Positions 6,567-61,427 of a stretch of 64,000 bases of DNA are shown here, in pieces. Both the position numbers and the translations under genes were made by a program. Under the pieces are notes generated by a model. It worked only from the letters and a program-made list of their open reading frames with translations. It was not told where the DNA came from and made no database searches. The stretch spans positions 19,468,001 through 19,532,000 of the forward strand of contig NC_043007.1 of assembly GCF_006345805.1 (NCBI RefSeq). Direction: 5' to 3'. The DNA comes from Octopus sinensis. Lineage: Eukaryota. Position 1 is the stretch's first letter; every line of letters starts with the position of its first letter.

Positions 6567-6614
6567 CTGATAGATGCATGCATTTCAGAATGGTTATCTC
6601 CTCTTCAGTATCAG
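6567..6614 (-). ncRNA. Minimal type-I hammerhead ribozyme motif
   Basis: Minus strand: CTGATA-CTGAAGA-GGAG ataacca TTCT-GAAA-TGCATGCA-TC-TATCAG; 6-bp stem I, canonical core, palindromic stem III, AUC cleavage triplet. Confidence 0.7.
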
Positions 6615-7269
6615 ACACTCATAAGAGGAAAGCCACAAACTGACAAGAGATGGACGTTTCATACTATATTCTCATTCCTGTCATTGTAATGTGACTGGTT
6701 GCACTAATCGATGGCTCTAATATATATTCCATATCTATCTATCTATCTATCTATCTATCTGTCTGTCTGTCTGTCTATCTATCTACCTATCTATCTATCT
6801 ATCTGTCTGTCTGTCTATCAGTCTGTCTGTCTATCTATCTATCTATCTATCTATCTATCTGTCTGTCTGTCTGTCTGTCTGTCTGTGTGTCTGTGTGTCT
6901 GTCGATCAGTGTGTGTGCTTGTGTGTGTGAGCGTTTGTGTGTGTGAGTGTTTGTGTGTGTGAGCGTTTGTGTGTGTGAGTGTTTGTGTGTGTTTGTGTGA
7001 GTGTGTTTGTATGTGTATGTGTGAGTGTGTGTGTGTCTATGTGTGTGTGTGTGTGCGTGCTTGCATGCACTTGTGTATGAAGGGATCATTTCAGTTCCTC
7101 CCAACCAAATTCACTCTCAACGCTTTTTTAGTTGGCCCAGGGTTATAGCCGAAGACAGTCACCCAAAGTGCTATACAGTGGGATTTGAACCCGAAACCAC
7201 GCCAATGGAAAGCAATCTTCTTAAACCTACAGTCCCACCACACGTACACAGCATTTTGGAAGCAGAATC

Positions 7270-7560
7270 AAGATAGGTCAAAACGTGGAGGAGGTAAGGA
7301 TAAAGATGTGTTAGGAGAGCTGAAGTGGGTCACAGAAAATAGCAATTGCAAAGGTAGAGACAAGAGACAACAGGATGTGAAGCAGTTCAGATTAGACGAA
7401 ATGCCGAGGCAGTCAGGGCTGGCTTTTAGAGTGCAGCTAGAAAAGAGGTAGGTCAGAGAACACCAGGATGTTTTGGTAGCGACAGCAGATGGTGGGAAGT
7501 TGTGCTGCGGATTAGACAAAAGACTGTTGTCTTTCAACTGGAGCAGAACATATAGTGTTT
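7270..7560 (-). mobile_element. Old L2/Jockey-like LINE 3' remnant
   Basis: Minus-strand degenerate translation (VSCLYLCNCYF...) weakly resembles LINE ORF2 C-terminal motifs; many stops. Confidence 0.3.
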
Positions 7561-7574
7561 TCATGACATTTTAA

Positions 7575-7970
7575 TTTTCATTTATTTCAGTCGTTAGACT
7601 GTGGCCATGCTGTGGCACCGCCTTGAAGAGTTTAGCTGAACAAATCAACCCTGGTGCTTTTTTGGTTTTTTTTTTTTTTAAAAAAAAACCTGACACTTCT
7701 ATTAGTCTCTTTTTGCTGAGCTGCTAAGTTATGTGAATGTAAACAAACCAATACTGGTTAAGCAGTGGTTGAGGGTGACACAAAGACACACACATACACA
7801 CACATATATATGATGGGCATCTTTCATTTTCCACCTACCAAATCCACTCACAAGGCTTTGGTTGTCTCAGGGCTATAATAGAAGACACTTGCCCATGGTG
7901 CTATGAAGTGGGACTGAACTCGGAACCATGTGGTTGGGAAGCAAACTTATTATCACTCAGTCACACCTGA
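7575..7970 (-). mobile_element. SINE family A, degenerate full copy
   Basis: Reverse-complement match to 2954-3338. Confidence 0.8.
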
Positions 7971-8016
7971 CATGGAGGTTTTGGAAAGTACATACTTGCA
8001 GGCGCATGCATGCGCA

Positions 8017-8922
8017 GAGGGAGATTTGGCCGCTATTTCTACCAGGTCTAGCTACCATGTAGAGGTCTCCCTCATTGGCTCATACATACATATATACATA
8101 CATAAGACATTAAGGTGTGATTTGAGGGAGATTTGGCTGTTATTTCTACCAGGTCTAGCTACCATGTAGAGGTCTCCCTCATTGGCTCATACATACATAT
8201 ATACATACATAAGACAGTCAGGTGTGATTTGAGGGAGATTTGGCTGTTATTTTTACCAGGTCTGGCTACCATGTAGAGGTCTCCCTCATTGGCTCATACA
8301 TATATACAATAATAGACATTAAGGTGTGATTTGAGGGAGATTTGGCTGTTATTTCTACCAGGTCTGGCTACCATGTAGAGGTCTCCCTCATTGGCTCATA
8401 CATATATACAATAATAGACATTAAGGTGTGATTTGGGGGAGATTTGGCTGTTATTTCTACCAGGTCTAGCTACCATGTAGAGGTCTCCCTCATTGGCTCA
8501 TACATACATATATACATACATAAGACATTGAGGTGTGATTTGAGGGAGATTTGGCTGTTATTTCTACCAGGTCTAGCTACCATGTAGAGATCTCCCTCAT
8601 TGGCTCATACATACATATATCTATACATAAGACAGTAGAGTGTTTTGAGGGAGATTTAGCTGCTATTTCTACCAGGTCTAGCTACCATGTAGGTCTCCCT
8701 CATTGGCTCATACATATATACAATAATAAGACATTAAGGTGTGATTTGAGGGAGATTTGGCTGTTATTTCTACCAGGTCTAGCTACCATGTAGAGGTCTC
8801 CCTCATTGGCTCATACATACATATATATACATACATAAGACATTAAGGTGTGATTTGAGGAAGATTTGGCTGTTATTTCTACCAGGTCTGGCTACCATGT
8901 AGAGGTCTCCCTCATTGGCTCA
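8017..8922. repeat. Satellite array, ~101-109-bp unit x9
   Basis: GAGGGAGATTTGGCTGTTATTTCTACCAGGTCTAGCTACCATGTAGAGGTCTCCCTC recurs at 8017, 8124, 8231, 8333, 8435, 8542, 8647, 8748 and 8857. Confidence 0.95.
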
Positions 8923-57993: not shown

Positions 57994-58223
57994 TTCTAGA
58001 TTTCTTTTGCTGTGACTTGACGGAAAAAGCAGAGAAGTTACCGAAATATTGCAACAACATTTGACTCAACAAAATATATATGTATTTGTATGTAAGTTTT
58101 TGTCAATACATACATATGCAAATACGTAGAGAGAAACGGATACCGAAAAATAAAAATAGACGTATTCTCACATATACACGTATAAATAATACACTTACGT
58201 GCACAACTATATATCTACTTATA

Positions 58224-58455
58224 AGGCGGCGAGCTGGCAGAAACGTTAGCGCGCCGGGCGAAATGCTTAGCGGTATTTCGTCTGTCGTTACGTTGTGAGT
58301 TCAAATTCCGCCGAGGTCGACTTTGCCTTTCATCCTTTCGGGGTCGATAAATTAAGTACCAGTTTCGCACTGGGGTCGATGTAATCGACTTACTCCCTTT
58401 GTCTGTCCTTGTTTGTCCCCTCTACGTTTAGCCTCTTGTGGGCAGTAAAGAAATA
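58224..58455 (+). mobile_element. SINE family B, young full copy with TSD
   Basis: GGCGGCGAGCTGGCAGAAACGTTAG...GAGTTCAAATTCC head; TATATATCTACTTATA direct repeats on both flanks. Confidence 0.9.
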
Positions 58456-58901
58456 TATATATCTACTTATATATATGCTCATATATATGCGCGTGTGCGT
58501 GTGTGGTAAGAAGCTTGCTTCCCAACCAAACCACATGATTCAGGGTTCAGTCCCACTGCGTGACACCTTGGGTAAGTGTCTTCTACTGTAGCCTCACGCC
58601 GACTAAAGCTTTGTGAATGGATTTAGGAGACGGAAACTGAAAGAAGCCCGTCGTATATATATATATATATATATATATATATATATATATATAACACGTA
58701 TATATATATATGTATATAAATATGCATATTCTTTTATTCTTTTACTTGTTTCAGTCATTTGATTGCAACCATGCTGGGGCAGTGCCTTTTATCGGTCTGT
58801 TTTGCCGAACTGCTAAGTTACAGGGACGTAAACACACCAACCTCGGTTGTCAAGCGATGGTGGGGGTACAAACATATACACACACACGCACATACACATA
58901 C

Positions 58902-59443
58902 ATGTATGTATGTATGTATGTATGTATGTATGTATGTATGTATGCATGCATGTATGTATGTATGTATGCATGTATGTATGTATGTATGTATGTATGTATG
59001 CATGTATGTATGTATGTATGTATGTATGCATGTATGTATGCATGCATGCATGCATGTATGTATGCATGTATGTATGTATGTATGTATGCATGTATGTATG
59101 TATGTATGTATGTATGTATGCATGTATGTATGTATGCATGTATGTATGTATGTATGTATGCATGTATGCATATAGGTATGTATGTATGTATGTGTATGCA
59201 TGTATGTATGTATGTATGTATGTATGCATGTATGTTGCATGTATGCATGTATGTATGTATGTATGTATGTATGTATGCATGTATGTATGTATGTATGTAT
59301 GTATGTATGTATGTATGTATGTATGCATGTATGTATGTATGTATGTATGTATGCATGTATGTATGTATGTATTATGTATGTATGCATGTATGTATGTATG
59401 TATGCATGTTGTATGTATGTATGTATGTATGCATGCATGTATG
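58902..59443. repeat. (TATG)n microsatellite
   Basis: Direct inspection. Confidence 0.95.
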
Positions 59444-61217
59444 ATATACAATATATATAAACCCATATATAATGTTGATATCAAATTTTGCCAGAGAGCC
59501 AGGAATTTAGGAGATTAAATCGATTACATTGGCTCCGGTGTTCTACTTGGACTTATTTAATCGACCCCGAAAAGGAATGAAGGCAAACGGAACATTGGCG
59601 GAGTTTGAACCCAGAACGTGAGTATGTTGTCACTATATCACTCTGTCGCTATATCGACCGGGCTGACAAATGTTGTTATACACCGCTGATCACAATACAC
59701 TTCCTCGCTTTGTTTTAGCCTTGAAACGAAACCACCCCGATGGCCAGGCGGGCAGACCAACGCCCCCCTCCACTCACCGCTGAACAGAGTAACCTGTTTA
59801 CAGCTGAGTGGACTGGACCAATATAAAATGAAGTGTTTTGCTCTCCGGAATACAACCCAGTGCCGGCCTGGGAATCGAAACCACGACCTTGTGATACCTT
59901 ATTTACTCGCTGCTCCCGATAAGCCGTCGGTTCAATCTTATTGCTCTGCTTATCTTAGTCTAATCTTTTCTTTATCCATTGGGCTTAACACCATATTACA
60001 CACACACACACACACCACACACACAAACACACACACAAACACACACAACTTTTATTTTTTTATCTGAGTCGAGAAGAGACAAAGCGTGACGTATTTACCA
60101 TCTTAGATGCATACATTTACTTGCATGTGTATATATATATATATATATATATACACATACATATATATTTCTTTACTACCCACTAAGGGCCATATATATA
60201 TATATATATATAAACATATACATATACATATATATACAAATACACATACATACATATATATATATATATATATATATATATATATATATTATATATATAT
60301 ATATATATATGTGGGTGTGTGTGTGTGTGTGTGTGTGTGTGTATTATATCAATGTGGGCGCACAATCGTCCACGCACAAATGTACGCGCACAATATATGT
60401 GTCTGCATTTATATACTGTGATATGTGTGTGTGTGTATTTATATATATACATCAATACAAACACTCATCCCTCAGTGCGTATGTATGTATGTGTGTGTAT
60501 ATGAGTGTATTTGTATTCTACGCGCCCTTGTTGTGTATATAAATTAGATTAACGGATCGATTAATGGAAGTTTTAATAAACAGTCCGACAAATAACAGCC
60601 TTAAAAAACCTTCTTGTCATCACCACCACCGCCGCCACCATCGCCACCACAACCACCACCACCTCCGCCGCCACCGCCACCAAACCTTCCCGCTAAGCGC
60701 CCATACTACAATACTGTTGTCCCCAACGCATCTTCACCAGCTTGCTCCAATTGTCCAGTCGAGGACATAATACGCTCACACCCTGTTTGTCTTCGCAACG
60801 GACATCTCTTTATGTTTGTCCTCAATGGTTTAAAAAACAAAAAAAATGTTAATTAACGGTGTTGTGTTGTGCGATATCAGTAAAGGTGACGGCGGTGGTG
60901 GTGCCGGACGTCGAAATGGTGGTGGTGGTGTGTTGGTGGTGGTGGTGGTGGTGCTGCTGCTGCTGATGATGATGATGATGATGGAGCAGTCTTGGGATAA
61001 TGGACTTGGTGGTTTATGGTTGTTTACATACATACATGCATGTATACAACATTATAGATATATATATATATATATATTATATATTATATATATATATATA
61101 CTGAACTAATTTATCGATACATGTATTCGGTGTATTGATATATGTATGTATGTATGGTGGATTGGTATATGCGCATATATATATATATATATATATATAT
61201 ATATATATATATATATA

Positions 61218-61427
61218 GGGAGTGTTTCGAAAAAAACAAAAGACGAAGACAGGTGGTGTACAAAACAAACAGATGTATTAGTATAACGCTCAGGAATTGA
61301 AAAAAGTCTTTTACGTTTCGAGCCTACGCTCTTCTACAGAAAGGGACACAGAAAAAAATAAGGAGAAGAAACAAGGAGAGAAAAAAAGGTGTGTTGTAGT
61401 GATCAATCATGGCGGGGACTGACCATG
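61218..61427 (-). mobile_element. Short Penelope-type terminal-repeat element in (TA)n with a variant hammerhead (61308-61343)
   Basis: Minus strand: CTTT-CTGTAGA-A-GAGC gtag GCTC-GAAA-CG-TA-AAAG; homologous to 12236-12425. Confidence 0.6.

Follow-up and report, generated by a model that had tools for sequence, protein, structure and literature searches.

Hammerhead ribozyme motifs in a 64-kb window of the Octopus sinensis genome and their probable origin from Penelope-like element ends and tandem retrozymes

Hammerhead motifs and repeat families in the window

We describe six hammerhead ribozyme motifs in a 64-kb stretch of the Octopus sinensis genome (positions 19468001-19532000 of contig NC_043007.1, within a 2.72-Gb assembly; this whole stretch is called the window below), which has 39% GC and is rich in microsatellites and short repeats. 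The motifs belong to five repeat families, lettered here A (motifs at 12300 and 61308), B (48381), C (32584), D (30247) and E (6567). Their copies and parts are collected in Table 1, where three families are assigned to Penelope-like elements (PLEs), retroelements with a reverse transcriptase (RT) and a GIY-YIG endonuclease, and two to non-coding tandem repeats of the retrozyme kind. All six window copies are solo, with no tandem partner for dimer cleavage in cis. In the genome search made for each family, 40 candidates were scored and 30 loci fetched, and candidate counts are lower bounds; the first look gave at least 1646 candidates for A, 1046 for B, 3404 for C, 3147 for D and 381 for E.

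Table 1. Hammerhead-bearing repeat copies of the window and their predicted parts, in window coordinates (ORF, open reading frame; LTR, long terminal repeat; Pol III, RNA polymerase III)
Feature	Positions	Strand	Remark
Family E fragment, old ~342-nt tandem retrozyme family (probable)	6525..6757	-	limits approximate; copies 70-93% alike over matched part
E hammerhead: core CUGAAGA; stem I 6 bp, stem II 4 bp, stem III a 10-nt palindrome; triplet AUC	6567..6614	-	
Family A copy: probable 5'-truncated 3' end, Neptune/Nematis-type PLE lineage	12240..12424	+	
A hammerhead, A6U core, stem III decayed (ACAT)	12300..12335	+	
Family D second copy, inverted, 5'-truncated, adjoins main copy; PLE insertion signature	29955..30128	-	without the ~50-nt tail
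Family D main copy, slightly more than one unit of 353 nt (probable retrozyme)	30130..30505	+	
D hammerhead: core CUGAUGA; stem I 6 bp, stem III an 8-nt palindrome	30247..30291	+	predicted cut after 30285
Family C copy: probable 3' end/pseudo-LTR of Penelope/Poseidon-type PLE, starts at tRNA-like head	32428..32682	+	limits approximate
tRNA-like head: Pol III A box 32440-32450, B box 32484-32494	32435..32505	+	spacing 33 nt
(TAA)n linker within family C	32506..32538	+	
ATG that may open the PLE frame, which in partial-tandem copies crosses hammerhead and tail to reach the RT ORF	32554..32556	+	putative
C hammerhead: core CUGAUGA, then an extra A; stem I 5 bp, stem II 4 bp, palindrome ACGU, triplet GUU	32584..32628	+	predicted cut after 32623
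Family B copy: probable 5'-truncated 3' end, second Neptune/Nematis-type PLE lineage	48274..48462	-	in (TA)n
B hammerhead, U4C core, ACGU palindrome	48381..48415	-	
Family A copy	61219..61414	-	in (TA)n
A hammerhead, A6U core, ACGU palindrome, GUA triplet	61308..61343	-	

Motif detection and chance expectation

Both strands were scanned with a descriptor that asks for a stem I of at least 4 bp, a stem II of at least 3 bp, GAAA and UH. With the exact core CUGANGA it matches three times, at 6567-6614 (-), 30247-30291 (+) and 32584-32628 (+); allowing one core mismatch adds 61308-61343 (-), with CUGUAGA (A6U), and 48381-48415 (-), with CCGACGA (U4C). The core at 12300-12335 (+) is also CUGUAGA, and this motif falls outside the descriptor because its stem III reads ACAT; it is a decayed member of the 61308 family, 91% identical. 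An earlier note, made from the letters of the window, had proposed six type-I hammerhead folds here, and its six coordinates, strands and stem III letters all hold. The CUGANGA core that it gave to every motif is present at 6567, 30247 and 32584, and is replaced by the A6U form at 12300 and 61308 and by the U4C form at 48381; an unpaired additional A at the junction of core and stem II, found in four of the six (both A motifs, B and C), had gone unmentioned.

That such motifs are chance look-alikes within a repeat-rich window might be argued from the three of six that miss the consensus core, and from Rfam, which for the window returns microsatellite look-alikes of microRNAs and no hammerhead among the best 150 of 256 matches. 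Against this, the comparison with shuffled sequence that the earlier note had called for (813 dinucleotide shuffles of the window, in 500-nt blocks) gave no strict match in 805 shuffles and one in 8, compared to three observed; the one-mismatch descriptor found none in 689, one in 117, two in 7 and never three or more, compared to five observed. Exact A/B-type motifs number 27,143 in 2.72 Gb, or about one per 100 kb, and a reversed control 0; moreover, the position of the motif is fixed within the PLE ends described below. The shuffles and genome counts already refute the chance reading, to which we assign a negligible probability.

The window is not typical in density. The earlier figure of about one motif per 10 kb does not carry over to the genome as an average for intact motifs: 0.80 Mb of family flanks contain 11 off-target descriptor matches (own-family matches excluded; one is a misfiled E copy), and intact motifs are less frequent genome-wide than here. 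By homology, which includes decayed copies, the flanks of other families contained 9 A ends (in 0.71 Mb), 4 B ends (in 0.71 Mb) and 6 C ends (in 0.36 Mb), and D and E were encountered 0 times.

Families A and B: probable ends of Neptune/Nematis-type elements

Copies of A and B have a fixed 3' end and ragged 5' ends, with (TA)3 directly after the end in 20 of 29 A copies and 28 of 29 B copies. A following (TA)n is reported for Neptune (PMC8557442), and the Neptune/Nematis clades are marked by (TA)n targeting and an extra, Zn-finger-like cysteine linker between RT and GIY-YIG. Searching the genome with the GIY-YIG remnant of the window led to 12 loci with long frames. Seven of them have A-like ends, 79-88% identical to those of the window, downstream of GIY-YIG; in three (L181, L185 and L186) such ends bracket the ORF, and the A parent frames match RVT_1 (E=1.8e-7). 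B-like ends, 75-86% identical, form the terminus of a second, related PLE in three of four loci of that lineage (L189-L191; the fourth stretch ended too early). The frames of L181-L189 carry a cysteine linker, C-x4-C-x2-C, between RT and GIY-YIG, and the parents of A and B fit the Neptune/Nematis type, as classed from these motifs and not from an RT tree. Through these sister subfamilies, 75-88% identical, the A and B copies of the window appear to be 5'-truncated 3' ends of PLEs.

The remnant used as query, at 62264-62572 (+), is a decayed GIY-YIG endonuclease fragment of another PLE lineage, with nearest genome copies 53-64% identical and at least 3862 first-look candidates. It was rejected as the parent of the 61308 copy, being on the opposite strand and 42-46% identical to the A/B parents.

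Core letters were counted by hand among the first 100 of the 27,143 A/B-type matches. The four-nucleotide loop of A occurs in 53, all of which have U at position 6, while position 7 (N7) is U in 26, A in 14, C in 9 and G in 4; the loop of B occurs in 47, with C4 in 29 and the canonical U4 in 18. Among A, B and C, the consensus core CUGANGA...GAAA...UH is found in C and in those 18 B-type matches, and neither in A nor in the B copy of the window. A6U, carried by thousands of copies, is present also in the A copies that flank ORFs.

Fixed in family A, A6U likely weakens the ribozyme, whose fold is likely kept as an RNA element conserved at the PLE end. Somewhat less likely than not, in our view, the A6U and U4C cores are instead still active natural variants, rescued by tertiary contacts or by a PLE protein. 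All 53 matches have U6, and at N7 any of the four bases occurs, as it does in hammerheads that work; ORF-flanking copies carry A6U; natural U4C and A6C variants have low activity, which for A6C is still detectable, and viroids with U4C stay infectious (PMC3088659); and cleavage by a PLE hammerhead is protein-assisted in vitro (PMC11167929). Yet changes at position 6 lower activity (PMC3088659), U4C is not required, since B retains U4 in 18 of 47, the minimum free energy (MFE) structure of A ends is not the hammerhead fold, and PLE insertion in vitro proceeds without need of cleavage (PMC11167929). No natural A6U hammerhead was found among the literature matches listed, though A6U may be described in Lunse et al. 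2017, the likeliest place, or in its supplements.

A and B share the heptamer CCTGAGC, located 15-35 nt past the cut site and complementary to the 3' strand of stem II. A role for a downstream GAGC as a conformational switch finds support from MFE folds in only one of five cases.

Family C: a probable autonomous Penelope/Poseidon-type element

In family C a tRNA-like head is followed by (TAA)n, the hammerhead and a tail, an order that at first resembled a tRNA-derived short interspersed element (SINE). A search with an endonuclease peptide placed the tRNA-like head ~75 nt after the GIY-YIG stop in 29 of 30 loci (one being the query's own), with tail or hammerhead sequence close behind the head in 27. 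The partial tandem at L323 reads endonuclease end, head, hammerhead, tail, ORF, head, hammerhead; L325 has a 551-aa RT+GIY-YIG frame without a cysteine linker, for which the nearest Atlas clusters are RVT_1/HTH_animal/GIY-YIG proteins (0.95-0.97). Penelope/Poseidon elements have a single ORF with RT and then a C-terminal GIY-YIG, and no cysteine linker between them (PMC8557442), and the C parent fits this type, again by motifs and not by an RT tree. The window C copy is linked to such elements directly, and appears to be the 5'-truncated 3' end of a PLE.

Further PLE marks are the partial tandems (L323 and L324), an inverted C copy in 12 of 30 loci, and an optional tail of ~36 nt. A frame that opens at an ATG ~35 nt before the core can be followed in both partial tandems, apart from breaks peculiar to single copies, across hammerhead and tail as far as the N-terminal PLE motif; we infer that the C hammerhead may be coding, within the PLE frame, as in the green anole element PAc. 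Two other origins were considered and rejected. A chimera made by SINE-PLE template switching (L065 and L209, with PLE endonuclease upstream) was dropped because 29 of 30 ORF ends carry the head. A separate SINE lineage of short copies was set aside as well: short and ORF-linked copies (51 vs 36, over 213 columns) have the same letters and no diagnostic columns, with a best p of 0.002 that points toward more decay in the long set, and the sequence is the PLE's own end.

The tRNA-like head of family C

Compared to the pattern of PMC8969392, the C head has an exact A box, a spacing of 33 nt and a B box with one mismatch; the B box is present in 22 of 31 heads. Short C copies show the spacing of a tRNA-derived SINE (A and B boxes 30-35 nt apart near the 5' end), and this promoter-type pair stands ~150 nt ahead of the putatively in-frame hammerhead. 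The head does not appear to be an intact tRNA: strict ARAGORN finds a tRNA in 0 of 20 C loci, relaxed ARAGORN in 4 of 31 heads against 0.1 in shuffled sequence, and 13 against 2.1, with inconsistent anticodons, and Rfam has no tRNA match for the two C heads submitted.

A 22-mer of the head occurs 2247 times in the genome (control 0). Among the first 30 head copies in genome order, 23 start within ~12 nt of the head and 7 continue for 67 to >1000 nt into the PLE body; an inverted C copy lies upstream in 12, and C tail sequence follows the head in 24. When copies were selected by the tail alone, 26 of 29 could be mapped, of which 7 have their start at the head, a single one passes it and the other 18 begin after it.

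The pile-up of 5' ends fits initiation by Pol III, toward which we lean slightly: the tRNA-type promoter of the C pseudo-LTR would likely make short SINE-like RNAs that are inserted by the same RT. The competing account, which we rate as a serious contender just short of even, is that RT stops or folds back at a short palindrome before the head, the tRNA-like piece being a passenger (an old SINE head in the untranslated region) that yields no Pol III transcript. It draws on a short inverted repeat exactly at the 5' edge of the head in the PLE body, on the 12 head copies with an inverted C copy upstream, on family D, whose breakpoints likewise recur (at -294 to -299 in 4 of 30 and at -201 to -205 in 3 of 30), and on the strict ARAGORN and Rfam results (0/20 loci, 0/2 heads). 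It fits less well with 23 of 30 ends falling within ~12 nt, as the seven passers run for 67 to >1000 nt, a rate that predicts a stop within 12 nt for ~3%; nor does it account for the absence of an inverted copy in about half of the 23, or for A and B boxes intact at canonical spacing (B box in 22 of 31 heads). On the sense strand of C no T4 run is common to half of the covering copies, as compared to 29 shared A4 runs (17 aligned copies). Selection against Pol III terminators would be compatible with this and no more, synonymous-codon shuffles of five C frames giving 0-2 observed against 0.5-2.9 expected (p 0.09-0.61).

A fuller proposal, speculative and in our view rather unlikely as a whole, is that C is an autonomous Penelope/Poseidon PLE with a captured tRNA-derived Pol III promoter in its pseudo-LTR, and so would be both a master like a long interspersed element (LINE) and its own SINE. 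Pol III RNAs from the head would carry the hammerhead and the RT start sites and be inserted by the thousands; in partial tandems the promoter may transcribe the whole 2.5-kb ORF; and the in-frame hammerhead would serve as an off-switch between mRNA and template. Among the literature matches listed there is no case of tRNA or Pol III features in PLE ends. The sole other A-box/B-box pair in the window, at 63136-63189 (-), is a second tRNA-type SINE head with a layout like that of the C head.

Families D and E: probable tandem retrozymes

Family D has a period of 353 nt and up to 3.5 units, with three full units at G000:C2276; an 18-mer from it occurs 2170 times in the genome (control 0). Its anatomy was read from the first 30 position-ordered 18-mer matches, corresponding to 26 insertions (four pairs are a main and an inverted copy). 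Two fixed 3' ends ~55 nt apart account for 12 and 15 of the matches, with 3 others; 20 have an inverted partner; and an upstream PLE ORF was found in none of the 30 (one RT fragment lies ~1 kb beyond a 3' end). The window copy has the same anatomy, with an inverted part at 29955-30128 and a main copy reaching to 30505. A tail and an inverted copy are the signature of PLE insertion (PMC8557442; PMC11167929), and D would carry such marks on a non-coding tandem unit, that is, a non-LTR retrozyme. Some D copies are longer than one unit, and a circular or uncut multimeric template is therefore needed; uncut multimeric transcripts explain D as well as circles.

Family E is older, with a 340-348-nt period in 7 of 28 anchored loci and a common form that has a canonical 6-bp stem I and 4-bp stem II; no PLE protein was found at 30 E loci. 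D and E both fit the description of retrozymes, as judged from their DNA (a 150-450-nt non-coding tandem unit, one type-I hammerhead each, no RT ORF). The window copies differ from the commonest letters of their families at 4 of 45 (D) and 3 of 48 (E) motif positions. In the window copy of D the palindrome, ATTGCAAT, has undergone CpG decay twice, and the tidy AGG/CCT stem II is specific to that copy.

Several further observations concern these families. In the common form of the D hammerhead one additional A follows the core and one additional G precedes GAAA, giving an A.G opposition that closes a 3-bp stem II. Among the first 100 matches listed, D copies cluster strongly on G000:C1 at ~110-115 Mb and 200-204 Mb. 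At L292:3104-4428, a full unit is preceded by an array of about seven D sub-units of ~165 nt, which reach from just past the predicted cut to the inner 3' end. Other type-I hammerheads, with a 6-bp stem I, an 8-12-nt palindromic stem III and distinct complementary stems, occur at L120:295-341 (+), L149:1905-1951 (-) and L214:728-780 (+); of these, the L120 hammerhead has a U4C core, and the element at L149 is 66-68% similar to family D. Four sequencing runs guessed to be RNA, all of assembled contigs, cover D and C and have no depth at the unique flank 32316-32423 (four of four). They are not used as evidence because contigs cannot show ends, strand or circles, and joints that go back 350 nt equal the genomic tandem junction.

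Stem complementarity and predicted dimers

The earlier note had held that stem sequences differ between families yet stay complementary, and the covariation check bears this out: across eight families, stem I occurs as eight different pairs and the stem III palindrome in six versions, with complementarity kept throughout, and between A and B a C-G pair of stem I is exchanged for G-C. Decay within families falls mostly at CpG; change at other sites is lower inside the motif than outside for A (p 3e-5), B (0.018), D (0.02) and E (1e-4) and equal for C (p 0.68), in a test whose bias is noted below. A type-I topology, a short stem I, an unpaired base after A9, G10.1-C11.1 and a palindromic stem III occur together in A, B and C, the 12300 copy lacking the palindrome. 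The predicted stem III of A, B and C has no pair in the monomer and forms a 4-bp self-duplex of -1.7 kcal/mol in the dimer; dimer values are -6.5 kcal/mol for D and -13.4 kcal/mol for E, with none for the 12300 copy. The picture agrees with that of PMC4209133, where low activity is reported as well, even for dimers.

Interpretation

Taken together, we are fairly confident that the six motifs are hammerhead folds of five families, three of them PLE 3' ends (pseudo-LTRs) and two ~350-nt tandem retrozymes likely copied by PLE RT. From the PLE literature and the insertion patterns, PLE RT would begin complementary DNA (cDNA) synthesis past the hammerhead, on its downstream side, at either of two fixed sites, and would usually stop early or fold back at a hairpin, leaving short solo ends, often with an inverted 5' copy; hammerheads would litter the genome without ORFs because of these early stops and fold-backs. 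The hammerhead would act in the source RNA (tandem PLE transcripts, retrozyme multimers or circles) and not in the decaying solo copies of the window; the source RNA would be cut as a dimer formed by way of palindromic stem III, probably at a slow rate or aided by protein.

The tie between minimal hammerheads with palindromic stem III and PLEs, stated in the earlier note, is borne out in that A, B and C are probable PLE ends. Its reading of the motifs as several non-autonomous families survives for D and E, which are tandem and non-coding, and gives way for both A copies, B and C, which appear to be 5'-truncated PLE 3' ends; a non-autonomous circular RNA system would fit two motifs at most (D and E). 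We regard it as improbable that all the motifs are independent non-autonomous ribozyme retroelements making self-cleaved circular RNAs. Such a view is consistent with D and E, whose 340-353-nt units have a 6-bp stem I like expressed animal retrozymes (PMC7229834), and with D insertions of more than one unit, which need a circular or multimeric template. It is refuted for C by the continuity with an RT+GIY-YIG ORF, short C copies having no diagnostic letters against ORF-linked ones over the 213 columns; A- and B-like ends flank PLE ORFs, A, B and C are mostly solo and not tandem, and uncut multimeric transcripts explain D equally.

Several points nevertheless weigh against the assignment to PLE ends and PLE-copied retrozymes. 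For the window's own A and B subfamilies no junction with an ORF was found (GIY-YIG is reached in 0 of 29 further A loci), and they could be short non-autonomous offshoots; clade names come from motifs and not from a tree. In D, 0 of 30 5' ends fall within 5 nt of the predicted cut and 9 of 30 matches read through it, and an autonomous partner for D or E was not found. The comparison of change inside and outside the motif is biased by BLAST ascertainment and homopolymer flanks. Cleavage, circles and Pol III transcription are predictions, and for the one PLE studied in vitro, hammerhead mutants insert unimpaired and no RNA ends were seen at the cut (PMC11167929).

Hammerheads in PLE pseudo-LTRs and retrozymes are already published biology: the feature is real and its kind is known. 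The parts worth testing are the tRNA-type promoter inside an autonomous PLE end (C) and the fixed A6U core (A), both of which could move open questions, namely how PLEs are transcribed and what their hammerheads do. If true, a PLE with a built-in tRNA-type promoter would bridge PLEs, SINEs and the promoter-plus-hammerhead repeats of Schistosoma, and would allow Pol III-driven retrotransposition to be tested directly. A highly successful PLE lineage (27,143 exact copies of the A/B motif) in which a change at a near-invariant core position has become fixed would be a natural experiment on the need for cleavage, which the sole in vitro PLE study found dispensable (PMC11167929).

Other features of the window

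Four tandem arrays, at 4504-4928, 8017-8936, 15158-15798 and 50135-50582, have units of 140, 107, 184 and 149 nt, within which the descriptor finds no hammerhead. A broken Tc1/mariner-type transposase lies at 48686-49735 (+) (HTH_23 E=2.4e-7; DDE_3 E=4.4e-12), and a C2H2 zinc-finger frame at 55627-56013 (-), which by resemblance is probably the 3' end of a LINE ORF.

Comparison with known systems

The nearest counterparts of A, B and C are the pseudo-LTR hammerheads of PLEs (Cervera and de la Pena 2014, PMC4209133; Lunse et al. 2017), which share with them the type-I fold, a 4-5-bp stem I, an unpaired base between 9 and 10.1, G10.1-C11.1, a palindromic stem III, and an occurrence mostly as solo truncated copies, a few of which flank RT+GIY-YIG ORFs. 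Stem II is 7-8 bp in the Schistosoma PLE motifs and 4 bp in A, B and C; the core variant reported there is U3-A8, as compared to A6U (A) and U4C (part of B) here; and C differs in the tRNA-type promoter of its pseudo-LTR. In the available portions of two cephalopod repeat papers (PMC13282606 and PMC8967140) the word hammerhead is absent, and for a squid genome 235 Rfam hammerhead_1 hits were counted without analysis (PMC6962438).

The Poseidon element PAc of the green anole (Frangieh et al. 2024, PMC11167929) resembles C in its Penelope/Poseidon ORF layout and in an ORF start that overlaps the hammerhead. Two RT start sites give PAc an optional tail of 30-40 nt, which can be compared to ~36 nt in C and ~55 nt in D. 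The start of the C frame would lie ~35 nt before the core, behind the tRNA-like head and (TAA)n, whereas no such head is described for PAc in the available text.

D and E resemble the non-LTR retrozymes of animals (Cervera and de la Pena 2020, PMC7229834; Li, Clavereau and Pollet 2026 preprint) in their 340-353-nt non-coding tandem units, one type-I hammerhead per unit and the co-occurrence of PLEs. They differ from these in longer stem III palindromes (8-10 nt), in the A.G opposition that closes stem II in the common form of D, and in that most D copies are dispersed and truncated with an inverted partner.

Two further systems combine a Pol III promoter with a repeat end. The SINE-like repeats Sm-alpha and Sj-alpha of Schistosoma (PMC6765202) have, like C, a Pol III-type promoter and then a hammerhead; they are non-coding tandem repeats, whereas the C unit appears to be part of an autonomous RT-encoding PLE, with its hammerhead in a putative frame. 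The TRIMs (terminal-repeat retrotransposons in miniature) Cassandra, Helenus and Ajax (PMC10886601) carry, like C, a Pol III promoter derived from a small RNA (5S or tRNA) inside a terminal repeat; they are non-autonomous LTR elements without a ribozyme, whereas in C the promoter-type sequence would belong to the PLE pseudo-LTR of an autonomous element.

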